Part shown: positions 13,918 through 63,339 of the stretch, piece after piece
Numbering within the stretch: the first letter of the stretch is position 1
How the letters are laid out: the number at the start of each line of letters is the position of its first letter
Assembly: GCA_009930475.1 (NCBI GenBank)
Contig: RZYC01000002.1
Coordinates: 1,121 to 65,120 of the forward strand
Source: Spartobacteria bacterium
GTDB lineage: Bacteria > Verrucomicrobiota > Kiritimatiellia > RZYC01
Length of the DNA stretch: 64,000 bases
Direction of reading: 5' to 3'
Notes under the pieces: generated by a model
What the model was told of the DNA's origin: nothing
The model's database searches: none
What the model saw: the letters and a program-made list of their open reading frames with translations, nothing else
Made by a program: the position numbers and the translations under genes

Positions 13918-14082
13918 TTATAAACTTCCAATCATTGGAACTTTTTTTTGGGCGGCATTTTGCATGGGGCAGTGACGACAATGTCCTGTGCAGCCGCTGC
14001 CCCCCTTCGTTTCTTTGTGAAGGAAACGGAAAACGCTCCATCCAGCAACTGCAACGAGTGCGATAATGATCATCATTTCCAT
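13918..14082 (-). CDS. FeoB-associated Cys-rich membrane mini-protein (about 54 aa)
   Basis: MEMMIIIALVAVAGWSVFRFLHKETKGGSGCTGHCRHCP: one TM helix plus a Gly/Cys cluster, as in FeoB-associated Cys-rich proteins. Its start is 3 nt from the feoB stop. The last 9 codons (KKVPMIGSL) are contributed by a REP palindrome. The longer 114-aa ORF-track version is rejected because it overlaps feoB. Confidence 0.55.
   Translation of the reverse strand: MEMMIIIALVAVAGWSVFRFLHKETKGGSGCTGHCRHCPMQNAAQKKVPMIGSL
13921..13948. repeat. REP-like palindrome (cttccaatcattggaac plus T-run)
   Basis: Member of the dispersed GTTCCAATCATTGGAAC hairpin family. Overlaps the 3' end of the FeoC-like mini-gene. Confidence 0.7.
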
Positions 14083-14084
14083 TG

Positions 14085-16163
14085 TCAGACCCCTATTCCG
14101 GCGAGTGAACCGATTTGATAGACAGCGGTCGTGAGAACCCAGGCAAGCAGCGTCAGACCACCCAGCTGGAATAAGGCCCAGCGCCATGAATTGGACTCGC
14201 GTTTCGTTACGGCGATCGTCGCCATGCAGGGCGCACTGATGAGACAAAAGAGCATGATGCAAAATCCGGTCAGCGGATTGTAATGCTTCTGTAGCTGTTC
14301 ACGCAGCGGCTGCGAGGTCTCGTCGCTTTCCCCCACCGAATAGACAATGCCAAGCTGAGCGACAAACACTTCTTTGGCGGCAAACGCTCCGATTAATGCC
14401 GTCCCAATGCGCCAGTCAAATCCCATAGGTTTGATCACCGGCTCCATCACATGCCCGATTCTCCCGGCAAAGGTATGAGCAAGCTGTTGAGATTGTTGCA
14501 ATTCCTCGGACAGTGATGGATCCGGCGTAGATTGTGGAAAAGTCGTCAGTGCCCACAAAAGAATAGAGATTCCCAAAATCAGGGTTCCCGCTTTTTTAAG
14601 GTACAGTTTACTGCGTTCCCACACGTGAATCATGATTCCGCTGAACGTAGGCACACGATAGGGCGGCAGTTCCATCACAAAAGGTTCTGTGGGACCTTGT
14701 AAAACACTGATGCGTAAAATCTTTGCAACCACAACGGCCAGAACGAGTCCGATGATATAAATCAGCCACAGCAGCGGGGCCTGCCATGGTTTGGCAAAGA
14801 AAGCCGGAATAATCAGTGCATAAATGGGCAGACGAGCCCCGCAACTGGACAGGGGAACAACAAACATTGTGGTAAGCCGATCGCGCCGGTTATCCAGCGT
14901 ACGTGTGGCCATAATCGCCGGAACCGAACAACCGAATCCTATGAGCATCGGAATAAAACTTTTGCCATGCAGCCCGATTTTATTCATCAGGCGATCCATA
15001 AGAAAGGCGGCGCGCGCCATATAACCGGTGTCTTCGAGTACGGCAATGGCCAAAAACAACAGCAATATATTGGGAAGGAAAATGAGCACGCCGCCCACGC
15101 CGGCAATAATCCCGTCTGTCACCAGGGAATGAATCAGTTCCATTTGATCCGCCGGCCAGATGCTGTCGACCCATCCCGTCAACGCACCAAATCCCGCATC
15201 AATCCAGTCCATAGGCAACGCACCAAAAGTAAACGTCATATAAAAAACGCAATACATAAGCACGGCGAAAATAGGCAGGCCCAGCACGCGATGTGTGACA
15301 ATATGATCCACGCGATCGGACATGGAAACACGCTGTTCGACGGATGATCGTATGGATTGCTGAATGACCCCGGATATAACCCCGTAGCGCTGCTCTGCAA
15401 TAAGAATATCCGGTTCATCTCCGGTGACATGTATCAGGCGCTCTACTTCCTTGTCCACCACGGCCAGCACAGCCGGAGTCGTCGCGTCCATCATCTCATC
15501 ATCACGTTCCAGCAGTTTCACCGCAGTCCAGCGTATCTGTTCCGGGTTTTTTGAGGAATCCTCCGAAAAGAGCTGCCAACCGATCAGATCCAGACTTTTC
15601 TCAACTTCCTTTCCGTACCGTACATCCAGCGGTGCAGGTCGCGATGATGCCGTCATGACGGCTTCGATCTCCGCAGTCACATCGTCCAGCCCCCGCCCCT
15701 TTGACGCAACCACTGGAATGACTGGAACCCCCAGCAAAACCGCCATTTTCTTCAAATCAATGGCCATTCCGCGCGACTGGGCCACATCCATCATGTTCAA
15801 CACCACAATCAGAGGAACCTTCATCTCCAATAATTGAAAAGTCAGATAAAGGTTGCGTTCAATATTTGATGCATCCACCACGTTGACCACGACGTCCGGC
15901 GTCTGATGCAGCAATTCCTGACGCGCCACCCGCTCTTCCACACTATGAGCCGCCAGACTATAGGTGCCGGGCAGATCGGTGATTTCCATGCGCCATTGAC
16001 CCGACTCACGAACCCCTTCCTTTTTTTCGACGGTAACACCCGGATAATTCCCCACGTGCTGCCGTGAACCGGTCAATCGATTAAATAATGTTGTCTTGCC
16101 GGAATTGGGATTCCCGGCCAATGCAATACGTATCGTCTGCATGTATATCTCACTCCTTGTCAT
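14085..16163 (-). CDS. feoB: Ferrous iron transporter FeoB
   Basis: N-terminal G-domain IALAGNPNSGKTTLFN..., DLPGTYSL, NMMD, then a large polytopic permease domain. The true start may be the internal M at complement 16142. Confidence 0.9.
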   Translation of the reverse strand: MTRSEIYMQTIRIALAGNPNSGKTTLFNRLTGSRQHVGNYPGVTVEKKEGVRESGQWRMEITDLPGTYSLAAHSVEERVARQELLHQTPDVVVNVVDASNIERNLYLTFQLLEMKVPLIVVLNMMDVAQSRGMAIDLKKMAVLLGVPVIPVVASKGRGLDDVTAEIEAVMTASSRPAPLDVRYGKEVEKSLDLIGWQLFSEDSSKNPEQIRWTAVKLLERDDEMMDATTPAVLAVVDKEVERLIHVTGDEPDILIAEQRYGVISGVIQQSIRSSVEQRVSMSDRVDHIVTHRVLGLPIFAVLMYCVFYMTFTFGALPMDWIDAGFGALTGWVDSIWPADQMELIHSLVTDGIIAGVGGVLIFLPNILLLFLAIAVLEDTGYMARAAFLMDRLMNKIGLHGKSFIPMLIGFGCSVPAIMATRTLDNRRDRLTTMFVVPLSSCGARLPIYALIIPAFFAKPWQAPLLWLIYIIGLVLAVVVAKILRISVLQGPTEPFVMELPPYRVPTFSGIMIHVWERSKLYLKKAGTLILGISILLWALTTFPQSTPDPSLSEELQQSQQLAHTFAGRIGHVMEPVIKPMGFDWRIGTALIGAFAAKEVFVAQLGIVYSVGESDETSQPLREQLQKHYNPLTGFCIMLFCLISAPCMATIAVTKRESNSWRWALFQLGGLTLLAWVLTTAVYQIGSLAGIGV

Positions 16164-16209
16164 TAGGACTTCCTAACTTTTGGTATAAAAAAAACACAAT
16201 GAAAAATCC

Positions 16210-16443
16210 CTACGACGGGGCCACCAGAATGCCGTGCGCCATACCGCGTCCAATCGCAAAACGACTTTCCTTCATTTTGATGAGCAGCGGCCCCGGCTGA
16301 CTGCTGATCACCTCCAGAGAACAACCGGGATAAATGCCCAGCGAAGCCAGCCTCGCACAGCGATGATGTCCCCCGTTCACACTGCAAACCGTAAGCGGTG
16401 TACCACTGGGAGCCATAGTCAACGACATGCCGGACTTAATCAT
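16210..16443 (-). CDS. feoA: FeoA
   Basis: 77 aa, SH3-like FeoA pattern ...RLASLGIYPGCSLEVISSQPGPLLIKMKESRFAIGRGMAHGILV. The ORF 16163-16387 in another frame is rejected. Confidence 0.75.
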   Translation of the reverse strand: MIKSGMSLTMAPSGTPLTVCSVNGGHHRCARLASLGIYPGCSLEVISSQPGPLLIKMKESRFAIGRGMAHGILVAPS

Positions 16444-17185
16444 GATGCACCTGCACTAAAATAGCAGCGGCTTCCGTTTTTCGCAGCGAAAGATGATAGC
16501 CCCGAATTTTGAAATCAATGGGATCACCCATGGGGGCTTTGCGTACAACCTCAATCGTCACGCCCCTGGAAACGCCCATTTCCGCCAATTTCAGGCGTAA
16601 CGCCCCCGTCGCCTCAATCTTTTCGACAACACCCCGATCCCCGGCATCCATCGCTTCGGCAAGGATCGAAGTACATGTTTGCTCTCTCATTTTTTCTGCC
16701 TCCTCCAGCTGCGTCAGACACGACTCTATACAGGGACGACACTGACTTTCCTTATTCATTTCACTACACTGATAACTCAGCCCGCGAATCCATTTCAATC
16801 CGGCACGCGGACACGTCTCGATAAATTCAGTAAACTGCACCAGCCGATCAATCACCTCGCGCGACGCCGCATGTTCCAGCAGACACGCCTGTTCATCCGC
16901 AACCGCAGGATCAATACACAAAACAGACGTCAAAAAAAGCCGCAATATCTCATGCTTACGCACGACCGCTTTGGCAAGTGCCTCCCCTTCATCAGTCAAT
17001 GTAACAGCGGCATATTTCTTATAATGCACCAGCTTCTTTTCTGCCAGCGTTTGAAGCATCTCCGTCACAGAAGGTTTTCGCACGGATAAGCGGTTGGCAA
17101 TATCGGTTGTCCGCGCACCGCCTCCTTCGCGTGATAACATCCAGATCGCTTCTAAATAATCTTCAAGTGCCGCACTGATCGCCAT
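16436..17185 (-). CDS. DtxR/IdeR-family metal-dependent transcriptional repressor with a C-terminal FeoA/SH3-like domain
   Basis: N-terminal HTH MAISAALEDYLEAIWMLSREGGGARTTDIANRLSVRKPSVTEMLQTL. The C-terminal FeoA-like segment GVTIEVVRKAPMGDPIDFKIRGYHLSLRKTEAAAILV. The gene overlaps feoA by 8 nt. Confidence 0.85.
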   Translation of the reverse strand: MAISAALEDYLEAIWMLSREGGGARTTDIANRLSVRKPSVTEMLQTLAEKKLVHYKKYAAVTLTDEGEALAKAVVRKHEILRLFLTSVLCIDPAVADEQACLLEHAASREVIDRLVQFTEFIETCPRAGLKWIRGLSYQCSEMNKESQCRPCIESCLTQLEEAEKMREQTCTSILAEAMDAGDRGVVEKIEATGALRLKLAEMGVSRGVTIEVVRKAPMGDPIDFKIRGYHLSLRKTEAAAILVQVHHD

Positions 17186-19146: not shown

Positions 19147-20961
19147 ATGCGAAGAAGAACAGAAAATAGACTGAATTACCATCGAATGCATTTTGTGCTA
19201 TTAATGGTCGTGACGCTATTCTCAGTAACTGCGGCTTTTGCAGCAAAAACTGATCAGACCGGTGCCACGGCCAACGAAGTATTTCACGACACCATGATCT
19301 GGGCCAATCTATCCAGTCCCCACAGCACTTGGCACTCCATGATTTCATTGATCGATGAATATAACAGCATCATCAAAAAAGCCGGATTTACACCAGAAAA
19401 TGTCCAGGGCTTGATGCATCTGGAAACGGAAATCGCCAACTGCATCGATTTACGGGATGTCGCCCCGTCGGTACGCGTGAGCACCGCCATGGAAACCGCT
19501 GTTTACCTGCGCGAACTTCTGGCACGGTTTGAAACCCCGCCATCCGATTTTCTGCCCGACCGCGACGAGGCTTATCAGGAAATCAAACAAGGCCAGCCTC
19601 CTATTTGGCGCATTGCCGACTCCCCTATTTCCATCACATTGATGAAAGAAGGAGAACACGCCGGCGATTTCCAATTTTCAGCCCGTACAATTACCATTGC
19701 GCAAAGTGCTTTTGAACTGCTGAAAGATCGCCCGTACGTGGATAAGTCCGTAGAAGGTCTGTTTGAAAACTATTTTCTCACACCGGGAGCCCATATTCCG
19801 CAGGCATGGATTCGTCGCCTGCCGCTATGGATGAGCTACCAGTACCTGCACAACACCGTGTGGCAATGGCTCAGCACGCTGCTTGGTCTGATCCTTATTA
19901 TCGCATTTATTTTTTTCTCGGGTCGATGGATTCACCGCATGGGACAAAAACGTCAGGTACTGAGCCGCACTATGATTCGCATAACATGGCCGCTTTTAAG
20001 CAGTCTGGTCACCATATTTGTCATCCACTTTCTGGCAAATGAAATATTCATTACCGGGCAGCTCTTATTGTCTGTGCGATTTATGCAGTATGTCATCCTC
20101 TTGGTTGCTGGCGTGGCCATGGTTATTTCTATGGGAAATCTCCTGGCCGAATGGGCTGTTCATTTAACCAGATACACGCAGAAATCCATCGACACCTATC
20201 TCATTCGACTGGGCATCCGCCTCGTCAGCATGACCATTGCTGTCATTGTGATCATCGAAGGATTGCAAAAAATGGGGTTTTCACTCGCAACGGTGCTGGC
20301 CGGCGCCGGAGTTACCGGGTTGGCCATTGCATTGGCGGCTCAGGAATCTCTGCGCAATATCTTCGGCAGCATCATGCTGTTGCTGGACAAACCCTTTACG
20401 GTCGGTCAGCGGGTATTGATTCGCGGCCATGACGGCGTCGTAGAAAATATAGGGATGCGCTCCACAAAGATCCGCCTGCTATCCGGTCATCTTTCATCCA
20501 TTCCCAATGACGATGTAGCACGTGCTGATATTGAAAATGTGGGAGAACGCCCTTATATTCGCCGCAAATTCAGTGTCACCATCACCTATGATACCCCGCT
20601 GGAAAAAATCGATGAAGCCGTTGCTATTTTGCGTGATATCCTTGCCGTAAAAGAATGCAAAGGCGGACTCAATGCACCGGAACGACAGATCAATACACCC
20701 GACCATCCACCCAGGGTGTACTTCAATGACCTTAATGCCGATTCTCTTAATATTCTGGTCATATATTGGTTTGTGCCTGCGGATTACTGGGCGGCAGTAG
20801 CCTTTGATCACCACGTCAACCGCGAGATCATACGACGTTTTAACGAGGCCGGCATTGAGTTTGCCTTCCCGACCCAGACCCTGTTTATGGCGGGGGATCC
20901 CAATCGTCCCTTGGATATCGGACTGCAACCTGACCCGGAACCGAATAAGAAGAGCGATTGA
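19147..20961 (+). CDS. Mechanosensitive ion channel, MscS family (large, multi-TM N-terminus)
   Basis: Conserved MscS core ...PFTVGQRVLIRGHDGVVENIGMRSTKIRLLSGHLSSIPNDDVARADIEN. Confidence 0.8.
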   Translation: MRRRTENRLNYHRMHFVLLMVVTLFSVTAAFAAKTDQTGATANEVFHDTMIWANLSSPHSTWHSMISLIDEYNSIIKKAGFTPENVQGLMHLETEIANCIDLRDVAPSVRVSTAMETAVYLRELLARFETPPSDFLPDRDEAYQEIKQGQPPIWRIADSPISITLMKEGEHAGDFQFSARTITIAQSAFELLKDRPYVDKSVEGLFENYFLTPGAHIPQAWIRRLPLWMSYQYLHNTVWQWLSTLLGLILIIAFIFFSGRWIHRMGQKRQVLSRTMIRITWPLLSSLVTIFVIHFLANEIFITGQLLLSVRFMQYVILLVAGVAMVISMGNLLAEWAVHLTRYTQKSIDTYLIRLGIRLVSMTIAVIVIIEGLQKMGFSLATVLAGAGVTGLAIALAAQESLRNIFGSIMLLLDKPFTVGQRVLIRGHDGVVENIGMRSTKIRLLSGHLSSIPNDDVARADIENVGERPYIRRKFSVTITYDTPLEKIDEAVAILRDILAVKECKGGLNAPERQINTPDHPPRVYFNDLNADSLNILVIYWFVPADYWAAVAFDHHVNREIIRRFNEAGIEFAFPTQTLFMAGDPNRPLDIGLQPDPEPNKKSD

Positions 20962-21064
20962 TTTGGGATTGAATTGCGCGAAAGAATGCGCATCATGTAC
21001 AACTTTTCCTGCAACCAAAATCCGGACAGTCCGGCAGAAAACAATTAACACAAAGGATACAGCG

Positions 21065-21376
21065 ATGGCGAATATGATGAAATTGATGAAACAGGCTGCC
21101 AGCATGCAGAAAAATATGGAAAAAGCGCAACGCGAACTGGCCGATAAATCCGTAGAATTCACCAGCGGCGGCGGCATGGTGACGGTGGAAGCTACAGGCG
21201 ACGGACAAATCAAATCCCTGCGCATTGATCCCAAAGCCGTCGACCCCGACGACGTGGAAATGCTGGAAGATCTTGTTTTGGCGGCCGTTCAGGGCGCACT
21301 GAATTCCGCAAAAGATATGGCCGCAGCCGAAATGTCTAAATTGACCAACGGAATGAATATCCCCGGCTTATTCTAA
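21065..21376 (+). CDS. ybaB: Nucleoid-associated protein YbaB/EbfC
   Basis: MANMMKLMKQAASMQKNMEKAQRELADKSVEFTSGGGMVTVEATGDGQIKSLRIDP... The longer 20804-21376 ORF is rejected. Confidence 0.85.
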   Translation: MANMMKLMKQAASMQKNMEKAQRELADKSVEFTSGGGMVTVEATGDGQIKSLRIDPKAVDPDDVEMLEDLVLAAVQGALNSAKDMAAAEMSKLTNGMNIPGLF

Positions 21377-21377
21377 T

Positions 21378-21977
21378 ATGATTCCCCAATTTGACCAACT
21401 GGTTCGCGTGCTGGCTCGACTGCCAGGCGTCGGACGCCGTTCCGCTGAACGCATGGCACTGCGTCTGATCCAAGATAAAGACCGATTGCTGACCGAACTT
21501 CAGCAGACACTCGCCATGGCGCAGGAAAACATTTGTTGCTGCCGCTTATGCGGCGGCATCACTTCTACCGAACGCAACCCCTGTTCACTGTGCAAAGATC
21601 CCACGCGCGAACCCGTTTTATGCGTCGTAGAATCCGCCAGCGACATCCAGCTTCTTGAAGAATCGGGCGGTTATCGCGGTTATTATCATGCCTTATCGTC
21701 TAAACTATCGCCCATAAATGGTCAGGGAACCAAAGCCCTGCGTATCGAGATCCTATTGGAACGACTGCGTGAAAATGACTTCAAGGAAGTGATTCTGGCC
21801 ATGGATACCGACGTCGAAAGCGATGCAACAGCCGCCCTCCTTGTGGAAAAACTGCGCGATACCGATGTAGCCGTCACACGCATTGCTCAGGGCATCCCCG
21901 TGGGCAGTGCCGTGGGGTACGTCGATGGTTTAACCCTATCCCGCGCCATGCGTGCCCGCTATGAATGCGGCACCTGA
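21378..21977 (+). CDS. recR: Recombination protein RecR
   Basis: HhH LARLPGVGRRSAERMALRL, C4 zinc finger CCRLCGGITSTERNPCSLC, Toprim domain. Conserved ybaB-recR order. Confidence 0.9.
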   Translation: MIPQFDQLVRVLARLPGVGRRSAERMALRLIQDKDRLLTELQQTLAMAQENICCCRLCGGITSTERNPCSLCKDPTREPVLCVVESASDIQLLEESGGYRGYYHALSSKLSPINGQGTKALRIEILLERLRENDFKEVILAMDTDVESDATAALLVEKLRDTDVAVTRIAQGIPVGSAVGYVDGLTLSRAMRARYECGT

Positions 21978-22005
21978 CCAGATCTGAGTTCCACGGCCTC
22001 ATCCT

Positions 22006-22035
22006 AAAAAGTTCCAATGAGTGGAATTTTTATTT
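22006..22035. repeat. REP-like palindrome variant (gttccaatgagtggaat) directly after recR
   Basis: aaaaagttccaatgagtggaattttt; hairpin plus T-run in a terminator position. Confidence 0.6.
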
Positions 22036-22207
22036 AGCGCAATAAATCGGCGCAAAAAAGCAGGATAACAATTCCGTGCGGAGCTATCAAACAAAAAATT
22101 ATAATTAGCCTGACTTATAATATGATATATATTTCCGTTGCATTTTTTGTTAGAGTGCATGAAGCTGGTCGTATAAAGTACACAGAACAATTTACGTGAG
22201 GTGAAAG

Positions 22208-22693
22208 ATGAAGCAGTTATGGGCTCCTTGGCGCATGGAATACATTAAGGACAATACAACGAATGGCGGTTGCTTTATGTGCGCGATTTTTGCATCGAAT
22301 GATGACCGGGAAAATCTGGTCATTCAGCGAGGCGAGCATTGTGCAATTGTTATGAACCGGTATCCCTATTCTAATGGACATCTGATGGTTGCGCCCTATC
22401 GCCACATCGCACAGATGGAAGACATGACAGTGGACGAACAGCTGGAAATGATGCAGCTGAGTACGCGCTGTGTGCAGCTATTGAAAAAAACGGTGAATCC
22501 ACAGGGGTTCAATATCGGCATTAACATCGGAGATGTGGCAGGTGCCGGATTGAAGGATCACATTCATCTGCATGTGGTTCCGCGCTGGAACGGCGACACG
22601 AATTTCATGCCGATTTTTGGTGAAACGAAGGTTATTCCGCAATCACTGCTGGAAGTACGGGATTTACTGGTCGAGGCGGGCCAGCTCGGGTAA
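22208..22693 (+). CDS. HIT-family nucleotide hydrolase/transferase
   Basis: APWRMEYI N-terminus and histidine triad HIHLHVVPRW. Confidence 0.75.
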   Translation: MKQLWAPWRMEYIKDNTTNGGCFMCAIFASNDDRENLVIQRGEHCAIVMNRYPYSNGHLMVAPYRHIAQMEDMTVDEQLEMMQLSTRCVQLLKKTVNPQGFNIGINIGDVAGAGLKDHIHLHVVPRWNGDTNFMPIFGETKVIPQSLLEVRDLLVEAGQLG

Positions 22694-22718
22694 CCAGAGG
22701 ACTCAGGGAGGTTGTATC

Positions 22719-23885
22719 ATGGCTAAGAAAAAGGTGATGATTCTATCGGTGAGCGCAGGCAGCGGTCATCTGCGTGCGGCGGAAGCACTGGAAGAGGCAT
22801 GCCGCAAAGATGACCGCGTGGAAGAGGTTCGCCACATCGATGCGCTGGCTTTTACCAATAAGGTTTTTCAGGAAATTTATTCCAAAGGGTATATTGAAGC
22901 GGTCAAAAAAGCTCCGGAACTGTGGGCGATTGCTTTTGACGAAACCGATGTACCATGGCATCGCACCAAGGCGTTGTCCGTCATGCAGCGACTCAACGCA
23001 CAGCCACTGGTGAATGAGCTGAAGCGGTTTGAGCCGGATATCTGTCTGTGTACCCATTTTATGCCGGCGGATATTATTTCACGACTGATTCAGGCCGATA
23101 AACTGCACACGAATGTCGGCGTCGTCGTGACCGATTATTACGTACATGCCACTTGGTTATGTGATATTTTCACGCGGTATTTTGTGGGAAAACAGGAGAG
23201 CAAGGTGTTTCTCGAGGCCATCGGATTGCCCACCGATCGTATCGAGGTGTCCGGCATTCCCATATCCCAGGATTTTTCACAGGTGATGGATCGCGGGGGG
23301 TTATTAAAAAAACATGGACTGCTGCCCGATCGCCCGGTGGTTCTGTTGTCCGCCGGCACCTTTGGCGTCATGCCTGCCAAGGATATTTTCCGTATTCTTG
23401 AACGTATAAAAACCCCCGCGCAGCTGGTTGTAGTCTGCGGGCATAACGACAAGTTGAAGGAGGCATTAAACGATTATGCCGACACGGCGCTTACGGACAG
23501 CAATAAACGGTACGTGATACTTGGCTACACCGACGTGATGCATGAATTGCTGGCTGTGGCGGATCTTTTCATCGGCAAGCCGGGCGGCCTGACCACCAGC
23601 GAATGTATGGCGGCCGGCGTACCTATGATTGTCTGGGATCCCATTCCCGGACAGGAATGGTTCAATGCCTGTTATTTACTGGAAAGCGGTGCGGGCATTA
23701 TTCCCGATAATGCCGTAACCATCGGCTACAAAGTGGATTCCATTCTCGGTGATGCAGAAAAACTCAAAAAAATGAGCAATGCGGCGAGGGCTATAGCCAA
23801 ACCCGATGCCGCATCACATATCGTTGATGCCATGTTGAAAAACGAGAATGAAACACCGGTAAAAGCTTTTAAAAAGAAAATGTAA
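22719..23885 (+). CDS. GT28-family glycosyltransferase (MGDG synthase / UgtP-like diacylglycerol glycosyltransferase)
   Basis: MAKKKVMILSVSAGSGHLRAAEALEEA... N-terminus typical of MGDG-synthase-like proteins, and a C-terminal GT-B domain. AGGGAGG sits about 9 nt upstream of the ATG. The longer 22572 start is rejected. Confidence 0.65.
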   Translation: MAKKKVMILSVSAGSGHLRAAEALEEACRKDDRVEEVRHIDALAFTNKVFQEIYSKGYIEAVKKAPELWAIAFDETDVPWHRTKALSVMQRLNAQPLVNELKRFEPDICLCTHFMPADIISRLIQADKLHTNVGVVVTDYYVHATWLCDIFTRYFVGKQESKVFLEAIGLPTDRIEVSGIPISQDFSQVMDRGGLLKKHGLLPDRPVVLLSAGTFGVMPAKDIFRILERIKTPAQLVVVCGHNDKLKEALNDYADTALTDSNKRYVILGYTDVMHELLAVADLFIGKPGGLTTSECMAAGVPMIVWDPIPGQEWFNACYLLESGAGIIPDNAVTIGYKVDSILGDAEKLKKMSNAARAIAKPDAASHIVDAMLKNENETPVKAFKKKM

Positions 23886-23898
23886 CGATCAAAAGCAC

Positions 23899-25377
23899 GT
23901 GTCAGGATTAACTATGGTGAATACAGTTGTTGTCGCACATAAAACACAGGCCGCCTACCCGGAAAAAGAACCTTTTCATCCGGAAGGAGGCTATCCCGAA
24001 TATCCCTTTTCACAGGAATTAACGCAGGAACGAAATGACGTTTATGCGATGGTGCGCGATGTTTTTCGCGAAATGGAACTGGATGCCGGATACTTCGGAA
24101 CACCGCAGTGGAATCCGCTGGGAACCTTTATTAAACCGGGGATGACCGTGGTGTTAAAACCCAACCTGGTGCAGGATCGACATTATCGAGGCGGCGATAT
24201 GGACTGTTTAATCACACATGGTTCTATGGTGCGTGCCGTCATGGACTATGTGTATATCGCGCTGCACGGATCGGGAAAAGTCATCATGGGCGATGCACCG
24301 GTGCTCAGCACGGTGTTTGATAAAGCGGTGGAAAAGGCCCATCTGAATGAAGTCATTGCCTTCTATAAAGAACAGAAGCTGCCGGGTTTCGAGGTCTTTG
24401 ATTTCCGCAAAGTGGTGGGACGTCTGGATGATCGGTTTCATGTGACCGGCTGGGACGAATGCAGGGGCGACCCCCATGGCACGGTGCAGTTTGACCTGGG
24501 CAGCGACAGCATGCTCGAACCCATTGCTAAGTATGCAAAACTGTTCCGTCTGCCTCATTACCGGGTGGGTGATACGGAGCAATATCACAGCAGCTCTTAT
24601 AATAAATTTGTCGTCGCCCGATCAGTTATTGATGCGCAGGTGGTCATCAATATGCCCAAAATGAAAACCCACTGCAAGGCGGGCATGACCGGTGCACTCA
24701 AAAACTTCGTGGGTATGGTGGCCGTGCGACATTGCTATACGAACTATCGCAAAGGTAGTCCGGAACATCATGGTGATGAATACCCCTACCCCAGCACCAT
24801 CAAAACCATCAGCGATGCCATCGAACGCAAGGTGGATGGATTACAGGCGGGGCCGACCCGCAGCCTGCTGACACTGGCGCACCGAGTTAATGAACGTATT
24901 CGCAACATGCTGGGCATCGATGGAATACGCGACGGAGCCTGGTCCGGAAACGATACGGTGTGGCGTGCCATTGTGGATCTGGTCCGCATTGCGCGATATG
25001 GTAAAACGGATGGAACCATGAGCAGCGACCCGCAACGGATCCTGTTTACTATCATGGACGGAATCATTGCCGGCGAGGGCGAAGGCCCGCTGGAATCGCA
25101 ATCCATACACGCCAACTGTCTGATCGCGGGAGTCGACCCCATTGCCGTTGATGCTGTGACATCGAAGCTTATGGGCTTCGACTTTCGCAAGGTTCCTGTA
25201 ATCAAAAACGGAGCAGAGTTAACCACCTGGCCGCTGCTCGACGGGAAGCTTGACGAAATAACCTGCAGAGTAAACGGCAGCGAAACCAATATAAACAACG
25301 TGAACGGCATACTGGAATGCGGCCCGTTCAAACCGGCTCGGGGCTGGATTGGACGGATCGAAGAGGAAAGGCGCTGA
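23899..25377 (+). CDS. DUF362-like domain protein (function unknown)
   Basis: Central segment ...INMPKMKTHCKAGMTGALKNFVGMV... resembles DUF362. No other assignable motif. Confidence 0.4.
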   Translation: MSGLTMVNTVVVAHKTQAAYPEKEPFHPEGGYPEYPFSQELTQERNDVYAMVRDVFREMELDAGYFGTPQWNPLGTFIKPGMTVVLKPNLVQDRHYRGGDMDCLITHGSMVRAVMDYVYIALHGSGKVIMGDAPVLSTVFDKAVEKAHLNEVIAFYKEQKLPGFEVFDFRKVVGRLDDRFHVTGWDECRGDPHGTVQFDLGSDSMLEPIAKYAKLFRLPHYRVGDTEQYHSSSYNKFVVARSVIDAQVVINMPKMKTHCKAGMTGALKNFVGMVAVRHCYTNYRKGSPEHHGDEYPYPSTIKTISDAIERKVDGLQAGPTRSLLTLAHRVNERIRNMLGIDGIRDGAWSGNDTVWRAIVDLVRIARYGKTDGTMSSDPQRILFTIMDGIIAGEGEGPLESQSIHANCLIAGVDPIAVDAVTSKLMGFDFRKVPVIKNGAELTTWPLLDGKLDEITCRVNGSETNINNVNGILECGPFKPARGWIGRIEEERR

Positions 25378-25483
25378 TGCAGCAATCCTATGGCAAACAA
25401 AGTGTTTGTTTGACGATTGTGTTTGTGCTATTCTGCCTCCGTTTTATTCTGTCTGGCTTGTCGTAAATAAGGAAGGGATTTTT

Positions 25484-25924
25484 ATGAATATACTGGTGAT
25501 ACACGGACCTAATTTAAATTTACTGGGGCTGCGCGAGCCCGATAAATACGGAATTGTCGGACTGGATGAAGTAAATCAGCTGGTGCGCGATGAGGCGGAT
25601 CTTCTCGAAATCAGCGTAGAATGCTTTCAGTCAAACATCGAAGGAAATATCGTCACGGCCATTCATAAAGCCATGGGCCGTATCAGCGGAATTATTATTA
25701 ATGCTGCGGCCTATACACATACAAGTATTGCCATCCGTGATGCCATTGCGGCAGTTCAGATACCAACGATTGAAGTGCATTTGACGCAGACTGCCGCCCG
25801 CGAATCCTTTCGTCACGTCAGCATGATTGCACCGGTTTGTATAGGAAGCATTTCCGGGTTTGGTGCCGACAGCTACGTACTGGCTCTTCGCGGAATGTAT
25901 AACTATTTAAATATAAAAGAATAA
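25484..25924 (+). CDS. aroQ: 3-dehydroquinate dehydratase, type II
   Basis: MNILVIHGPNLNLLGLREPDKYG ... INAAAYTHTSIAIRDA, classical AroQ motifs. Conserved aroQ-accB-accC synteny. Confidence 0.85.
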   Translation: MNILVIHGPNLNLLGLREPDKYGIVGLDEVNQLVRDEADLLEISVECFQSNIEGNIVTAIHKAMGRISGIIINAAAYTHTSIAIRDAIAAVQIPTIEVHLTQTAARESFRHVSMIAPVCIGSISGFGADSYVLALRGMYNYLNIKE

Positions 25925-25948
25925 GACCAGAAAGAAGAGGGATGTTGC

Positions 25949-26386
25949 ATGGAATATCGTGAAATTAAGAAACTAGTTGATCTCATTGATGAAAAAGATT
26001 TTTCTGAATTTGAACTGGAGACAGAAGCGTTTCGGGTGAGCATCAAAAAAGGTGGACAGCAGCCGACGATGATGCCAACCGCCATCGCCGCCGCTCCCGC
26101 CGCATCACTGCCCGTGGCCGAACCGGTCGAGGCCGTCGAAGAAAGCGGAGAAGTGGTAAAATGCCCCATTGTCGGAACATTTTATCGTTCCCCTTCACCA
26201 GAATCTGATGTTTTTGTAAAAGTGGGCAGTCCGGTCGAAGAAGATACCGTGGTCTGTATTGTCGAAGCGATGAAAGTAATGAATGAAATCAAAGCGGAAG
26301 TCTGCGGTGTCGTCAAAAAAATATTAGTCGACAACGCTACACCTGTGGAATACGGGCAGCCGCTGTTTCTTATTGAAACAAAATAA
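25949..26386 (+). CDS. accB: Biotin carboxyl carrier protein of acetyl-CoA carboxylase
   Basis: Pro/Ala linker and biotinyl domain with EAMKVMNEI (biotinyl-lysine motif). Confidence 0.9.
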   Translation: MEYREIKKLVDLIDEKDFSEFELETEAFRVSIKKGGQQPTMMPTAIAAAPAASLPVAEPVEAVEESGEVVKCPIVGTFYRSPSPESDVFVKVGSPVEEDTVVCIVEAMKVMNEIKAEVCGVVKKILVDNATPVEYGQPLFLIETK

Positions 26387-26421
26387 TTGCTCAATTTTGA
26401 ACAACGCGGAGAACATTTATT

Positions 26422-27786: not shown

Positions 27787-27798
27787 GGAGACATTACC

Positions 27799-28353: not shown

Positions 28354-28395
28354 TATTTTTTTGCACATAATGCATAGGACAGCAGGAGTTTTTTA

Positions 28396-32153: not shown

Positions 32154-32158
32154 ATAAA

Positions 32159-53871: not shown

Positions 53872-54048
53872 TCATAAACACGAGCCATACTCCACACCCG
53901 TCACGTCACATGGAAAACCGATGCAGAGGATGCTATTTTGAGTACGCCAAATCAAATTAAAAATGGAAATATGCCTATGCATATATTAATCTGACTTATT
54001 ATTAATTTCTCCTTGACTTACAATCACACACACGCCACATTCACAGAC

Positions 54049-55029
54049 ATGAAACAGCGAATTAAAATGAAGCCATTGGCATACTACCACTGCATGAGCC
54101 GTATTGTTGGACGTCAAATGTTGCTGGGGGATGTGGAAAAAGAGCATATGCATCGATTAATCCGGCGAATCGAGGGGTTTACAGGTGTGCGTGTTCTGAC
54201 TTACGCCATCATGACCAATCACGTACACCTGCTTCTTGAGGAGCCGGATCAGGATACGGTCATTTCGGATGATGTGTTTCGGCGGCGACTGACCTGTTTG
54301 TATTCCAAGGATGAAATCGACGAACTTTATGAGTGCTGGAGCCTTTGGGAGCTCGACGGCTGCGCCGCAGCTGTACGGGAAGATAAACAGCGATACATGA
54401 ATAGAATGCACGACATCAGTGAATTCATGAAACAATTAAAACAACGGTTTTCTCGTTGGTACAACAAACGAAATCAACGTTCCGGTGCTTTGTGGGACAC
54501 ACGATTCAAGAGTGTTTTAGTGGAAGCAGGAACCCCGCTGAGAGTTGTGGCGGCCTATATCGAAATGAATCCGGTGCGGGCGGGCATGGTTAAAGAACCT
54601 CAGCATTATCGCTTTGGCGGGTTCGGCGAAGCATTGGGCGGCGGAATGGCGGCACGTGACGGCCTTCGCAAAATTGCCGCATGGATAGAACCGAACGTAA
54701 CGACCTGGAGCGAAGTATCGTCGCACTATTTGGAGCGCATTCTGATGTACGACGAGGTGCGCACCCATCCGGAACAAGCATGTACGGATCATGATTTTCT
54801 GCGTAAAAAGCTGGGTGACCGAGCGGAACTGACCGCCCATGAACGGCTACTTTGTCGCAGCCGTTATTTCACTGATGGCAGGATTATTGGTGGAAAAGCC
54901 TTTGTTGAAGCTTTTTTTCAGGAAAATAAAGATTATTTCGGGCCTAAACGAACGAAAGGTTCGAAAAAAGTCAAAGGCGGCTGGCAGGATTTATTCGCTA
55001 TTCGTGATTTGATGGACTGGCAGTCCTGA
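54049..55029 (+). CDS. IS200/IS605-family Y1 HUH transposase, RAYT-like, second paralog
   Basis: MKQRIKMKPLAYYHCMSR..., HUH NHVHLLLE, GALWDTRFKSVLVE...AAYIEMNPVRAGMV. About 70 % identical to the 33828-34787 protein over its full length. A REP palindrome lies 15 nt after the stop. Confidence 0.7.
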   Translation: MKQRIKMKPLAYYHCMSRIVGRQMLLGDVEKEHMHRLIRRIEGFTGVRVLTYAIMTNHVHLLLEEPDQDTVISDDVFRRRLTCLYSKDEIDELYECWSLWELDGCAAAVREDKQRYMNRMHDISEFMKQLKQRFSRWYNKRNQRSGALWDTRFKSVLVEAGTPLRVVAAYIEMNPVRAGMVKEPQHYRFGGFGEALGGGMAARDGLRKIAAWIEPNVTTWSEVSSHYLERILMYDEVRTHPEQACTDHDFLRKKLGDRAELTAHERLLCRSRYFTDGRIIGGKAFVEAFFQENKDYFGPKRTKGSKKVKGGWQDLFAIRDLMDWQS

Positions 55030-55044
55030 TTTGCCCAAAATATA

Positions 55045-55067
55045 AAGTTCCAATCATTGGAACTTTC
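55045..55067. repeat. REP-like palindrome immediately downstream of RAYT paralog 2
   Basis: aaagttccaatcattggaacttt. Confidence 0.75.
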
Positions 55068-56272: not shown

Positions 56273-56277
56273 CCTCA

Positions 56278-58431: not shown

Positions 58432-61400
58432 TTATTCTGCCAACTGCACACGCACACGATAGAAGACCGTGGCATCGGCACGATTCACGGTATCCGTGTA
58501 ACTGTTCATCGCCGGATTGAGCGACGGGATATGGCCCTGAAGCACTTGCATTCCGTTCAGCAGATTGGTGCTGAAATAAATTGAATAGGAGCGGTTCGAC
58601 TGATCGGTTCCCAACCAGCGAATCACATGACCTTCATCGGTGCTGACAGAAATTAATTCGGATTTAAGCATGGAATCGGCCTGGGTGGGATCGGTTCCGG
58701 CGACATATTCCTCCCAAGCGCGCATCGTATCGTCATCGCTGTCACACCACGCGACATCTTCATAATCACTGTTGGTGGGATAATAAGTATGAATCCATTC
58801 TTCCGGCACAGGAACGGGCGTATTGGTGGTCACCATCGCGGCAAAGCTTGCGTTCAGGGTGCCATCACCGGAGACGTTCAGCCACTTATACTCGTAGGAA
58901 ACAGCGGTGTTATCAAAGGCAACACCAATACTGCTTCCATTGGTACACACATCAGCAATACGATATCGGCCGGCGGCTGTGATCGTGAATAACTGATCCT
59001 CACCATCGACAACGGTCACTTCGCCATCCGGGCTGACAGCTCCATGCTCCCCGGCGGTGACTGAAATGGTATGATTCGGCGCATCAACTTCGACGATGCG
59101 CAGGTACTGAACCAGAGCGCCGTCCGATGTAATCGAGCGATCATCTCCGGTACCGGCATCCAGACTGACCCAGATCCCGTCATCATAGAGTTCTTGACCG
59201 AGTTTCGGGGTGTCCCAGAGGAGCACAAAGGCATCACTGGAGGCCAAGTTCTGCACATTGTAATACTTGGTGACATCCAAACCCAGCGTGTTCCAGGGGC
59301 CCTGCAGGTCATACGTGTCACTTGCGGCGGTATGCGGATCGCCCAGAATCAACGCAAAGGCCAACACGACATCATTGGCAGCAGGTCCGGCACCGGCCGT
59401 TTCATATTTGGCGGTGGCCAGAATTTTCGGGTTGTCATTGCCATCGGCCTTGCGACTGAGAAAATAGCGATTCATGCTGCGCAAAGCCGGGCTGTTCAGA
59501 CGCGCCCAGTTGACCCGACCATACCACTGATCCAATCCATCGGAATATTGTGGCGGGTTTTCCCAGAAGGTCGCCTTGTTCCACTGCTTAAAGTTGACGA
59601 TATATTTACCGAAATTCAGCTCATAGAGCGCAAATCCCTGATCTCGCCCGCCCACTTCACCGGTGGCGGGAATAATGCCCTTTTCCTGACCGTAGAACAT
59701 CATGGGAATCCCGTCGATCATGGCGTTGCAGCCATAGCGCGAAGCCGTCATCCAGCAGTCATCTTCCGGCATCACTTCATCGTGACCGGTCAGATTCAGC
59801 AGCACAGAACCGCCATTATACGCGTTGCGTCGATCTTCATAAGCGTCCTTAAACTGATAGGTCTCGCTGATATGCGCCTGCGTAAATTTAAAGACGATAT
59901 CCTCATTCAGCACATCGAAATGACGATTGGAACGATATCCCGGAATCCCGCCATCCAATGTTTCTGCCATAAAGATGAAGTTCCATTTTTTACTGCGCGT
60001 ATGATTGATGAAATATTCCCAGAACTGCGGAGGCAAACCCTGACCGAAATCACAGCGCAGCCCGTCGATTCCTCGATTATCCTGGCTGTTCACGTAGCTG
60101 TTGGTGCCTGAGTGACCCGTTTTTTCCAGCCAGTAATCAATATAGTAGCCGAAATATTTCCAGAGATCCTTGGTATCCGTGCCCATGCCCGGGAAGTCAT
60201 ACCAGTCGCCTTCATTCAGATAATTAGCATTGTCGGCGGGGTTATTCCTGACCAGCGCAGCGTAATTTCCGAAGAATAATTCCGCCACATCGTCCCATTT
60301 ACCAAAGTCGCCACGATCCGGAGCCGTCGCACAGTCATTGCTGTATACACCGGAATAATAGGTGGCGGGCTGACCATAATCCGTCCAGAGCGAATACCAG
60401 CCCGGCTTGCCCCCGCCGATGCGATCGTCCTTATTGGTGCAGAATCCCAGATCCACGCCGGCCTGTCCAAATTCGGCGTCCCATGCGGTATGATTGAATA
60501 CGCCATCGAGCATGATGTTTATGGTGCCTACGGTACCGGTATAACTGTCGCAGAGTGCCACAAAATTGGTGAATTCGTTCATGGCATCGTCTTCGGTGCC
60601 TTCATCACCAAACCATTTCGATACGGCGAAATAATCGCGCGTCGCATAGGGACTGCCCGGCGTATAGCCCGACGGATCACCGCGCGTGGTATCGGCACTG
60701 GGATGAATGGGCTGGAACCACAGGCAGTTGGCCTGCAGGTAATCCATATGGTTCAAATTAAACTTCCCGTTATCGGGATCGGTTAAACTGCCAAAGGTGC
60801 TGCGCCCCGCCTCGCTGGATTCGGCTGCATTTACCGTCAGTGCGTTCAGCTCGTACATCGTCAGGTCATGCACCTTTTTCGGAGAAACCACGACGGCATG
60901 ATCGCGCAGGCCGTCGCTGCTGTACCAGGTCCAGTTGGTTCCGCTTTGTTCTGTCGTCTGGAAGCGGGCCGTCAAACGATAGGCCCCGCAGCGGCTGACC
61001 CTTCCCGTCCAATAGTAGTCATCCGGTCCACCGGTCATGGCAAAGGCCGTGAAATACGCGCCCACATCGTTGGTGGTCAGCAAATTGCCGTCGGGCGGAC
61101 AAATCCCGTCGGCATAACCATCCGGAGTGATATGCTCATTAGAATAATCCACATCCACATATTCACGACGTCCGACATTGGAAAAGATTTCCACATTTTT
61201 CGCCGTGTCATCGCCGGGATTATAATGCACCTGAATGTCCACCGAATCGCCATTGATTTCATCAATAAAGGCCTTGGAGGTGGTATAATCCGCATTTTGC
61301 CAGCTATTGCCGCCGTCAATGGACACCTGAAGTCCCGACGCACCGGGGGTATACAGGGAAACAATGAACAGGTGGTCAGGATCGGCACTGTATTCGGCAA

Positions 61401-63210
61401 AGCGTTCCACATTATTGCCTTCGCTGTTCCATGCACCGACTTTATAACGAATGGATGATCCCGCATCAACGGGGAGTCCATTGACGGATCCCTGCCACCA
61501 CATGGCATCACCGCCTTCGAATTCATCTTCCTCCACATGATCAAAGACACATTCCAGCACCAACGTATCGGCGTTACCAGCCACACCAAGACCGGTGATC
61601 ACCGGATCGGTACCATTGGTGGTGTAATAAACGACCACATGATCAGCCCAGCGATTGGTGCCCGATCCCTGCGCGTAGCCCACTTTGGTCCAAAACTGCA
61701 ATCCGTCAGCCCCCGTCTTCACCACATTGGTTCCATGATAAATGAATCCCGGTTCATCGCCGGAAGCTCCCGCATACGTGAAATGGAAAGGCTGCGACTG
61801 TGCTCCAGTGGCCGAAGCAAACAAGGTATTATCCATACCAATATAGGTGGTATCGCGATTCTCATAGGTCACCTCCATATAATATTCAACTTCGTTGGTG
61901 GCCACAAACGTATCGGCATCGATTTTCGTCTTCCAATATTTGTTATTATCGACCTCCGAATCAAACCCGAGTCCGGCAGTTTGCCAGCTTTCGGCTCCGA
62001 CCAGGCGGTAGAAGACGGATCCGCCATTCTGATCACCGGCCGTTTCGTCATTCTGAAAACAGTTTCCCGTGTAAAGATAGACATCGCTATCGGCATAAGG
62101 GATCAGCGGATTACGCATAAACGTTCCCTGCGGCTCATAATTGGCAGGGATATGCCAGCAGTTGCCGAGATGGGTAATATGCGCAGCGGTTGTCACACAT
62201 TGCGTGAAAGAATTACCGCTTGTTCCCCCTGCTTTTTTAGCGCGAACACGATAATAATAGGTGGTTTCAGAGATCAGCCCCGTTACCAGACAGGTCGTGA
62301 CACTGTCCGCACTGACATCTTCATATCCAGCAACAAACTTCATAAAATCATTGGTATCACTGACATCCACCCGATATTCCGATGCTCCTGTGCTGGATTC
62401 CCATGCGGCCGTAAAATCAAACTCATTCGTTACAGAAGCGGGCAAAACAGCCGGAGCATCCGGCACCGCAGGCGACGGATCGTGCACCACATAGAAGTAG
62501 TTCGACCCATCATTATTACCACGTAAAGTGCAGAAATCCGTATACTGTTCCACCATCTGCTGCGGGAATGTGGAGGACAGCACATAAAACCGAACTTCCG
62601 TTCCATCCACCTGGTCGGGAATTTCCGCTGTCATCGTAGAGGTATCACCTGTAGCAGCAACAAAAGAAGAACTGCTCCAGTCATTTACCGAATAACGGAC
62701 ATAGACTGTTTCTTCAAATGATTTCATTCGATCCAGCCCGATCGTAACCGTCACCGGATCAAGACCAGCCGTTTCCGCATCGTTCGTCACCGTAGCGATC
62801 GTGGCCGGCCATGCGGTGGTTTCCATAACGAGGAATGGACGATCCCACCAGGTCGAATCCCCCCCCAGACGAAATGTTAAAACGTGATCAGCGGTGAAAC
62901 TGCTGTTCATGTTACCCGCACCAAAACCAATCCGTGCCTGACCAAGCGTTGCATTTGCTGTGGCATTCTGCGAATCCGTTCCCGCCCCCCACTTCGGGTC
63001 GTAATTCCCCTTCTGATCAAAAATAAACCCACAGCTCCCATCTACAGTATTCGTGAGACTCACCGCCCAATAATTACCAAAAGCAATATCCTGAGCCATC
63101 CACGACGGCTCCCATCCGTTCATATCCCCGCGTACCGACTCCGCATCCGCCACACCCGCCCCCAGCAGACAGCAGAAAAACACAGCAAACAGCGCGCGAA
63201 TACCTCCCAT
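58432..63210 (-). CDS. Giant secreted multidomain glycoside hydrolase family 13 (alpha-amylase superfamily) protein, about 1,592 aa
   Basis: Signal peptide MGGIRALFAVFFCCLLGAGVADA. GH13 regions I (VFNHTA), II (GIDGLRCDFGQ), III (FIFMAETLDG) and IV (LTGHDEV). The ORF-track start at 63561 runs through the REP cluster and is rejected. Confidence 0.75.
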   Translation of the reverse strand: MGGIRALFAVFFCCLLGAGVADAESVRGDMNGWEPSWMAQDIAFGNYWAVSLTNTVDGSCGFIFDQKGNYDPKWGAGTDSQNATANATLGQARIGFGAGNMNSSFTADHVLTFRLGGDSTWWDRPFLVMETTAWPATIATVTNDAETAGLDPVTVTIGLDRMKSFEETVYVRYSVNDWSSSSFVAATGDTSTMTAEIPDQVDGTEVRFYVLSSTFPQQMVEQYTDFCTLRGNNDGSNYFYVVHDPSPAVPDAPAVLPASVTNEFDFTAAWESSTGASEYRVDVSDTNDFMKFVAGYEDVSADSVTTCLVTGLISETTYYYRVRAKKAGGTSGNSFTQCVTTAAHITHLGNCWHIPANYEPQGTFMRNPLIPYADSDVYLYTGNCFQNDETAGDQNGGSVFYRLVGAESWQTAGLGFDSEVDNNKYWKTKIDADTFVATNEVEYYMEVTYENRDTTYIGMDNTLFASATGAQSQPFHFTYAGASGDEPGFIYHGTNVVKTGADGLQFWTKVGYAQGSGTNRWADHVVVYYTTNGTDPVITGLGVAGNADTLVLECVFDHVEEDEFEGGDAMWWQGSVNGLPVDAGSSIRYKVGAWNSEGNNVERFAEYSADPDHLFIVSLYTPGASGLQVSIDGGNSWQNADYTTSKAFIDEINGDSVDIQVHYNPGDDTAKNVEIFSNVGRREYVDVDYSNEHITPDGYADGICPPDGNLLTTNDVGAYFTAFAMTGGPDDYYWTGRVSRCGAYRLTARFQTTEQSGTNWTWYSSDGLRDHAVVVSPKKVHDLTMYELNALTVNAAESSEAGRSTFGSLTDPDNGKFNLNHMDYLQANCLWFQPIHPSADTTRGDPSGYTPGSPYATRDYFAVSKWFGDEGTEDDAMNEFTNFVALCDSYTGTVGTINIMLDGVFNHTAWDAEFGQAGVDLGFCTNKDDRIGGGKPGWYSLWTDYGQPATYYSGVYSNDCATAPDRGDFGKWDDVAELFFGNYAALVRNNPADNANYLNEGDWYDFPGMGTDTKDLWKYFGYYIDYWLEKTGHSGTNSYVNSQDNRGIDGLRCDFGQGLPPQFWEYFINHTRSKKWNFIFMAETLDGGIPGYRSNRHFDVLNEDIVFKFTQAHISETYQFKDAYEDRRNAYNGGSVLLNLTGHDEVMPEDDCWMTASRYGCNAMIDGIPMMFYGQEKGIIPATGEVGGRDQGFALYELNFGKYIVNFKQWNKATFWENPPQYSDGLDQWYGRVNWARLNSPALRSMNRYFLSRKADGNDNPKILATAKYETAGAGPAANDVVLAFALILGDPHTAASDTYDLQGPWNTLGLDVTKYYNVQNLASSDAFVLLWDTPKLGQELYDDGIWVSLDAGTGDDRSITSDGALVQYLRIVEVDAPNHTISVTAGEHGAVSPDGEVTVVDGEDQLFTITAAGRYRIADVCTNGSSIGVAFDNTAVSYEYKWLNVSGDGTLNASFAAMVTTNTPVPVPEEWIHTYYPTNSDYEDVAWCDSDDDTMRAWEEYVAGTDPTQADSMLKSELISVSTDEGHVIRWLGTDQSNRSYSIYFSTNLLNGMQVLQGHIPSLNPAMNSYTDTVNRADATVFYRVRVQLAE

Positions 63211-63221
63211 ACGGTCGTTTT

Positions 63222-63339
63222 GAAAAATTCCAATGATTGGAACTTTTTCAGACAAGACTTCCAATGAGTGGAACTTTTTATGGAAATACTTCCAATCATT
63301 GGAACTTTTTTCAGAACGTTTTCCAATCATTGGAAAACG
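63222..63339. repeat. Cluster of four REP-like palindromes (BIME-like) immediately upstream of the GH13 gene start
   Basis: Copies at 63222-63249, 63258-63283, 63289-63312 and 63319-63339. ORFs 63120-63326 and 63233-63544 are translation artefacts (…KVPIIGKSF…). Confidence 0.8.

Follow-up and report, generated by a model that had tools for sequence, protein, structure and literature searches.

To our knowledge, nearly all work on extragenic palindromes concerns Proteobacteria, in which they spread with the help of REP-associated tyrosine transposases (RAYTs) and differ in sequence between genera. The repetitive extragenic palindrome (REP) is defined by a conserved tetranucleotide, usually GTAG, on its 5′ side and by a tnpA-REP gene close by; in Group 3, REPs take the form of short, perfect palindromes (PMC8266576). 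RAYTs are typically single-copy and housekeeping-like (PMC5581495). Inverted repeats also serve as protein-binding sites: dimers of the Lrp type recognize 13–17 bp inverted repeats with an AT-rich centre, the sites form clusters spaced by two or three helical turns, and about 100 bp of DNA is wrapped around three dimers (PMC2995911). Here we analyzed a palindrome family in a 64,000-nucleotide stretch of a genome labelled Spartobacteria bacterium (contig RZYC01000002.1, positions 1,121 to 65,120; hereafter the window). The family is apparently a previously undescribed variant of the extragenic palindromes, and it stands apart from the known ones: a single core is shared across a poorly studied class of Verrucomicrobiota, the units appear to be spaced by whole helical turns, and sites are conserved one by one between species with no RAYT gene nearby. 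We tentatively propose, at somewhat short of an even chance, that its arrays are helically phased sites for a putative dimeric sequence-specific DNA-binding protein.

In the window, a search for TTCCA-N5-TGGAA with at most one mismatch gave 14 matches, 12 of which constitute the family and occupy six intergenic sites, against an expectation of 0. The longer pattern GTTCCA-N5-TGGAAC (at most one mismatch) gave 11 matches against 0.21 in shuffled sequences, and the 25-mer with up to three mismatches gave 20 strand-matches against 0.00. These comparisons with shuffles confirm a dispersed family of 12 copies that had been noticed in a sequence-only reading of the window, whose coordinates were right within a few bases; the cores start at 13926, 22012, 29398/29429/29471, 43854/43896, 55048 and 63228/63259/63290/63321. 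The same reading had described perfect 25-nt palindromes and two BIME-like clusters (BIME, bacterial interspersed mosaic element). Only three of the 12 copies (starting at 29424, 29466 and 43891) are perfect over 25 nt, the remainder having 1–3 non-complementary positions, and the 15-bp core is perfect in eight copies; the clusters number three. Its placement of all copies between genes is borne out by our gene map, which combines open reading frames (ORFs), translations and a codon-usage caller: all 12 copies are intergenic, and the cluster at 63223–63340 overlaps a long ORF solely through a spurious 5′ extension. We take the ATG at 63211 as the true start of that gene because the signal peptide MGGIRALFAVFFCCLLGAGVADA opens there.

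Three sites hold a single unit, and no strand is assigned to any unit. The unit TAAACTTCCAATCATTGGAACTTTT at 13921–13945 is flanked by the feoB stop (14085) on one side and, on the other, by the next gene of the minus strand, which starts at 13839; the degenerate unit AAAAGTTCCAATGAGTGGAATTTTT at 22007–22031 lies 35 nt past the recR stop, and the unit TAAAGTTCCAATCATTGGAACTTTC at 55043–55067 lies 19 nt past the stop of a RAYT-like gene and 35 nt before a glycosyltransferase start. Array 1, between the stop of a pfkB-family kinase gene (29310) and the start of a Kdo (3-deoxy-D-manno-octulosonic acid) transferase gene (29550), consists of a unit with the core TTCCAATGTCTGGAA at 29393–29417, a perfect 25-mer at 29424–29448, 31 bp from the first, and a second perfect 25-mer at 29466–29490, a further 42 bp away. 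Array 2, between a permease stop (43774) and a sigma-54 response-regulator gene, consists of a unit with the core TTCCAGACATTGGAA at 43849–43873 and, 42 bp from it, a perfect 25-mer at 43891–43915. In array 3, four units at 63223–63247, 63254–63278 (core TTCCAATGAGTGGAA), 63285–63309 and 63316–63340 follow one another at 31 bp, so that all spacings within the clusters of the window are 31 or 42 bp. The fourth unit has the opposite flank polarity (cgttTTCCAATCATTGGAAaacg), which is the dominant flank type in metagenome arrays. Upstream of a minus-strand gene for a 1593-aa secreted protein, 12 nt separate the first unit of array 3 from the ATG (63211); the array therefore lies in the leader or promoter of this gene and could control it. 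The gene next upstream of array 3 (63212–63340) ends at 63701.

What is conserved is the 15-bp core TTCCAAT-S-ATTGGAA, not the 25-mer. When 177 copies from 56 sources are tabulated by position, TTCCA and TGGAA do not vary, in part by construction of the search, the centre AAT-S-ATT is strongly preferred, and C and G occur at the midpoint in a ratio of 98:77. The half-sites may bear some likeness to parS or IclR boxes. Outward of the core, an S position and then four A/T positions follow on each side, and nothing is conserved farther out; neither GTAG/CTAC nor any other conserved base was found outside the 25-mer in these copies. An exact scan with AAGTTCCAATCATTGGAACTT, one genome per species, gave 55 loci (locus GC 43–62%) in 14 assemblies, a set that does not include the window genome, and nearly all of these assemblies carry the label Kiritimatiellia, Kiritimatiellales or Verrucomicrobiota. 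A scan of metagenomes for pairs of exact cores 20–50 bp apart gave at least 120 contigs. Protein comparisons point to the same group: the signal recognition particle (SRP) protein of a motif contig named 'Lentisphaerae bacterium GWF2_57_35' groups with Kiritimatiellia-labelled proteins, and the nearest relatives of AccC from the window are Kiritimatiellia-type proteins, at no more than 75% identity. No exact 21-mer match was found in viral contigs. A full-text literature search with the core and its halves returned nothing relevant, and no paper was found that combines Kiritimatiellaeota with palindromic repeats. Judged from these sequence comparisons, the 15-bp palindrome is a real, non-random and class-wide feature of Kiritimatiellia-type Verrucomicrobiota.

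The density of sites differs among the genomes. JBFXGK has about one array per 100 kb, and the window genome is about ten times denser per kb (six sites in 64 kb versus 17 matches on listed contigs of about 1.6 Mb). Motif contigs were also seen in metagenome-assembled genomes (MAGs) that are labelled otherwise, namely L032, L037, L039 and L049 in RZYD01 (Bacteroidia) and L034 in JAKQEE01 (Pseudomonadota). The RZYD arrays have a GC content of 43–47% and a period of 41 bp. These RZYD01 and JAKQEE01 contigs are probably mis-binned or mislabelled Kiritimatiellia-like DNA.

Solitary cores are hardly ever seen outside the window; the core forms arrays of 2–9 units with a lineage-specific period: 31 bp in JAKQHR, JBFXGK, JACKPT and JAQVYB, 32 bp in CAYYAR, CAIVKH, CALMYG, DAOLDL and JBMTVS, and 41 bp in the low-GC RZYD. 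The metagenome scan admitted any centre-to-centre distance from 20 to 50 bp, and all of its spacing figures are among the matches listed. Within that range, 120 of 129 exact-core pairs are 31 or 32 bp apart (101 and 19 pairs, respectively); the other spacings are 22 bp (3 pairs), 30 bp (2), 33 bp (2), 42 bp (1) and 46 bp (1). When degenerate copies are included, the spacings fall into groups of 21–24 bp (peak 22, n = 75), 29–33 bp (peak 31, n = 154) and 41–43 bp, and only the single 46-bp spacing lies outside them. The recurrent architectures are 31-31, 22-30-31 and 22-30-31-22. We infer that these spacings correspond approximately to two, three and four turns of B-DNA.

The arrays are also conserved site by site. 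We aligned three orthologous array pairs (JAKQHR/JBFXGK twice and CAYYAR/JBMTVS once) whose flanking regions are 72–85% identical by blastn. Copy number and spacing are the same within each pair. The cores are identical at 112 of 120 positions (93%), the 5-nt flanks at 64 of 77 (83%) and the linkers at 14 of 31 (45%), and no indels were found in the linkers of the three pairs. The intergenic DNA just beyond the arrays is gap-rich or unalignable. Since cores and spacing are kept, the linkers have diverged and the DNA outside can hardly be aligned, the arrays must be old, with the core and the spacing under local constraint.

Close strains could be compared as well: a strain identical to that of the window is present in Logan run SRR8327731, and a sister strain, about 98% identical (L180), in SRR32022287. 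Of the roughly 12 intergenic differences that separate the window strain from L180, three fall in the single copy at 22012: the sister strain has a consensus unit (L180:2030–2060), and the window unit at 22007–22031 has two substitutions and a further one in the flank. This unit is an example of decay, or of repair. Short-read contigs of the same and the sister strain (L056 and L180) end exactly at units, one after the RAYT-like gene (window 55029–55067) and one inside the three-unit array (29393–29490). The repeat therefore breaks short-read assemblies; on the practical side, the motif could also be a taxonomic marker for binning.

We favor protein docking because the site is symmetric, the spacing is strict and phased, cores are conserved with free linkers, the arrays are indifferent to gene orientation, and the neighbouring genes have no functional theme. 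The 5-bp arms of a site are one helical turn apart, its centre is AT-rich, and its A/T-tract flanks may have either polarity. In the proposed mechanism, each palindrome would serve, as duplex DNA, as the binding site for a dimer of a conserved sequence-specific protein. Because the sites are two, three or four turns apart, neighbouring dimers would lie on the same face of the helix, where they could bind cooperatively and bend or wrap 60–130 bp of intergenic DNA. Such a role would be architectural or regulatory, akin to that of BIMEs as regards distribution and to that of Lrp-type operator clusters as regards geometry.

The pattern of variation in the core is consistent with this reading. The sequence-only reading had argued for a structured element, on the ground that variants preserve pairing. 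The variants that it cited do not: aatgAGTgg produces an A·G mismatch, and agACattgg produces G·T and A·A. Across the 177 copies from 56 sources there is no compensatory change or covariation, since Watson–Crick combinations occur as often as expected under independence, both at positions 6/10 (134 versus 136.2) and at positions 7/9 (121 versus 121.2), and the argument from compensatory change is thus not supported. The absence of covariation, together with nearly equal numbers of central C and G, is the expectation for a symmetric duplex site. In addition, left and right flank types combine nearly independently. When the copies are oriented by the upstream gene, G·U-compatible variants are about as frequent as A·C variants, and composite arrays are found in either orientation. 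Folding of the palindrome is quite plausible, with a calculated −10.2 kcal/mol for the unit including its A:U pairs and −7.1 kcal/mol for the core hairpin, and with z-scores of −6.4 to −8.1 for arrays. Among Rfam families, only a tRNA reaches the gathering score in the window, and a search of the arrays at an E-value threshold returned solely sub-threshold matches to generic hairpins (miRNA precursors). A selected RNA or single-stranded DNA structure is argued by nothing but the palindromy itself.

A close parallel in geometry is the operator cluster of Lrp/AsnC-type proteins, such as those of Ss-LrpB, FL11 and E. coli Lrp. Like these clusters of 13–17 bp inverted repeats, the arrays combine a 15-bp core, an AATSATT centre and spacings of 22, 30–32 or 42 bp, and three-unit arrays of 93 bp match the approximately 100 bp wrapped around three Lrp-type dimers. 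On the other hand, natural Lrp sites are degenerate and located in the promoter regions of a regulon, whereas the sites described here hardly vary, run to tens or hundreds per genome and fill convergent spacers as well. These positions and the lack of a shared theme among the neighbours are unlike a classical regulon, and no Lrp-family protein is linked to the arrays. The likeness concerns how the arrays may work, and we do not claim the involvement of an Lrp protein.

Several observations weigh against the docking of a dimeric protein. No candidate binding protein and no recurrent DNA-binding gene was found beside the arrays: clustering of 295 neighbouring proteins and Pfam searches on 78 small ones gave no recurrent DNA-binding or transposase family, and no functional theme shared among the array-neighbour genes was found. 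Some of the clusters were rejected as artefacts of ORFs that read through the arrays and translate the core as '…SNDWK…'. There are few spacing classes, and the arrays of one lineage are not independent observations. In a Fourier analysis of AT content within the 31-bp unit, the 10.3-bp harmonic exceeds the other low harmonics, but it is not dominant overall and supports wrapping weakly. Perfect palindromy also suits hairpin or cruciform recognition. The three differences of about 12 that fall in the copy at 22012 indicate that not every copy is under strong constraint. Finally, the whole 22-30-31-22 composite recurs, similar linkers included, at different loci in one metagenome lineage, which suggests copying as a unit, the behaviour of a mobile element.

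Such behaviour would fit the most probable rival, in which the palindromes are of the REP/BIME type, single-stranded hairpins recognized and copied by an HUH/Y1 transposase (a RAYT, possibly the family in the window), with the period arising from the insertion mechanism. The arrays share much with the REPs, BIMEs and TnpA-REP/RAYT REPtrons of Enterobacteria and Pseudomonas: REPs are palindromes of 20–50 nt in many, mostly intergenic copies, and the units here are likewise short, high-copy and intergenic, with hundreds more copies in related genomes; they form tandem clusters with linkers of fixed length, and they lie between genes of unrelated function. The composite with conserved linkers suggests copying as a unit, the higher density of sites in the window genome than in JBFXGK points in the same direction, and short perfect palindromes are known among Group 3 REPs (PMC8266576). 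Thus, the clustered intergenic layout supports the REP/BIME resemblance that the sequence-only reading had proposed. Two hallmarks, the 5′ tetranucleotide and a cognate RAYT gene flanked by the motif, are both absent: no conserved tetranucleotide precedes the palindrome in the 177 copies. Moreover, for fully symmetric units whose central C/G does not alternate regularly, no orientation (REP versus inverted REP, iREP) can be defined; linker sequences are mostly not conserved; one core is common to the entire class, unlike REPs, which co-vary with their RAYT at the level of the genus; and the orthologous arrays are old and locally conserved.

The transposase side of this explanation depends on the two RAYT-like genes noticed earlier in the window, at 33828–34787 (minus strand) and 54013–55029 (plus strand). 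Both do carry the Pfam domain Y1_Tnp (PF01797), with E-values of 9e-13 and 8e-14. Against the NCBIfam model NF047646 (REP_Tyr_transpos) they reach 61.3 and 62.8 bits, below the cut-off of 80. The two proteins are paralogues with 67% identity and belong to a family with at least 70 diverged paralogues (50–75% identity) in one 'Spartobacteria' MAG (EOL87 locus tags; P0002–P0100), unlike both single-copy RAYTs and identical-copy insertion sequence (IS) elements. The family members are about 320 aa long with a long C-terminal extension, and the genes have AT-rich upstream regions of their own, without flanking hairpins. The gene at 54013–55029 has one unit on one side only, that 19 nt past its stop, and the gene at 33828–34787 has no unit on either side. 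In a locus of the related MAG that carries two paralogues (L057/L058, 18.9 kb; both paralogues in L057), neither the motif nor a flanking hairpin was found. With a profile hidden Markov model (HMM) built from 120 homologues, neither the 55 genome loci (about 380 kb) nor the 120 metagenome loci listed (674 kb) yielded a relative, which makes about 1.05 Mb of motif-bearing DNA screened in all; a first metagenome scan for such relatives had likewise confirmed none. The local RAYT-like genes are multi-copy and unassociated with the motif, and the link between the two that the sequence-only reading had suggested is not supported. We consider a primarily REP/BIME-type origin unlikely. BIMEs are themselves protein-binding sites for integration host factor (IHF) and gyrase, and since those of E. 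coli are both disseminated and protein-bound, the mobile-element and binding-site readings can coexist.

A distinctly unlikely explanation, in our view, is that the units are primarily bidirectional intrinsic terminators or stabilizers of mRNA 3′ ends that share one sequence, with an RNA hairpin and a U-run halting the polymerase in either direction. This explanation agrees with the anatomy in the window, where, by a 3-of-4 rule for the flanks, an A-run to the left and a T-run to the right frame 11 of the 12 copies, and the folding energies of units and arrays are compatible with it. Five of the six window sites lie 19–145 nt past a stop codon, and in several genomes the arrays nearly fill convergent spacers, with both genes supported by Pfam for L048, L025, L026 and L028. 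The resemblance to known bidirectional terminators with a shared sequence, such as the inverted pairs of DNA uptake sequences (DUS) in Neisseria, is accordingly an A-tract, stem-loop and T-tract in the window lineage and one sequence at many gene ends. The arrays differ from these in their weak AT-rich stem, in tandem phasing, in keeping the core where there is no U-run, and in occupying promoter and leader positions as well.

The bidirectional terminator that the sequence-only reading had suggested thus has its anatomy in the window and does not generalize beyond it. Among the matches listed, metagenome flanks are of the types TA (91), xA (89), Tx (57) and AT (49), that is, mostly T…A or half-T/A; T-run…A-run flanks, which have no U-tail on either strand, are common in many related lineages, and the core is retained under both flank arrangements. 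By pooled crude gene calls, 27 contexts are convergent, 26 divergent and 78 co-directional, the random ratio of 1:1:2, and no difference in this ratio was seen between flank types (Fisher p = 0.76). A bias toward 3′ ends, seen with a first per-locus caller (13 convergent versus 6 divergent), vanished with more data and a pooled model. Divergent start codons stand on either side of a four-unit array in L055, at distances of 45 and 83 nt, and array 3 of the window comes within 12 nt of the ATG of the large gene that follows it. For genomes of 50–62% GC, the AT-rich stem is weak; an ordinary, unique terminator-like hairpin in the window (AACCATGGGATATCCCATGGTT followed by a T-run, 34866–34893, minus strand, after an Hsp70-like gene) has −14.3 kcal/mol; the organism therefore also has conventional, GC-richer terminators. 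A consensus terminator scanner did not list the motif copies in the interval 20001–40000. Covariation and a sense-strand preference for G·U-compatible variants are both missing, and termination leaves the strict spacing and the conservation of the core unexplained. Because of the T…A flanks, the random gene contexts, the divergent array in L055 and the position of array 3 before an ATG, termination is at most a secondary, lineage-specific property. In the window lineage, the AAAAG…CTTTT flanks would let a unit fold as a weak hairpin with a U-run on either strand, and they may add weak bidirectional terminator activity.

It is very unlikely that the units are decaying or neutral selfish micro-repeats without function, generated in the manner of miniature inverted-repeat transposable elements (MITEs) or by slippage, whose conservation would come from recent spread or gene conversion. 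The composite array dispersed with similar linkers in one lineage, the single window copy that is degenerate relative to the sister strain, and neighbour genes without a functional theme would all fit such repeats. These features are outweighed by the same core over many species with a wide range of GC, by orthologous arrays whose linkers are saturated and whose cores and spacing are intact, and by units that are, we consider, too short for efficient gene conversion. A DNA uptake signal (of the uptake signal sequence, USS, or DUS type) doubling as a terminator when paired is extremely improbable: a short clade-wide motif that is palindromic at gene ends recalls the DUS pairs of Neisseria, which are palindromic at gene ends, but uptake sequences are over-represented across the genome, genes included, and the genes of the window contain no copy; known uptake signals also show nothing like this strict tandem phasing, and the density is low in some genomes such as JBFXGK.

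Returning to phased sites for a dimeric protein, a broader form of this proposal, which we regard as possible but doubtful, is a chromosome-architecture system of the Kiritimatiellia in which a dedicated protein would occupy tens to hundreds of phased intergenic arrays and wrap about 60–130 bp at each. If this were true, the arrays would be a boundary, supercoil-management or global regulatory device, a class-conserved analogue of the BIME/gyrase/IHF systems with its own recognition code. Arrays of TTCCAATSATTGGAA could be used as bait and offer a testable handle on a new sequence-specific DNA-binding (or hairpin-binding) factor and on a possible genome-organizing principle.

A few features near the arrays deserve mention. 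Large secreted proteins encoded beside arrays share a C-terminal domain of about 100 aa that ends in …Y.D….FYRV.V, and the array usually lies just past the stop codon. Genes of this family are found beside arrays at L003:5503–7998, L012:2009–6166, L029:885–3725, L033:7223–7999, L054:2–667, L087:5116–8784 and L133:1932–3980. The secreted-protein gene that adjoins array 3 in the window (58432–63211, minus strand) encodes an fn3 domain. The recurrence of secreted proteins beside arrays may simply reflect the abundance of the family. In the window, the unit at 13921–13945 lies just downstream of feoB, which belongs to a feoB-feoA-DtxR/MntR-type repressor cluster (14085–17185, minus strand), and no link between this cluster and the motif was seen. 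An ORF at 30882–32153 (plus strand), whose product would be repetitive and extremely rich in Pro and Thr, is of uncertain coding status, since the codon-usage caller preferred an ORF on the opposite strand.

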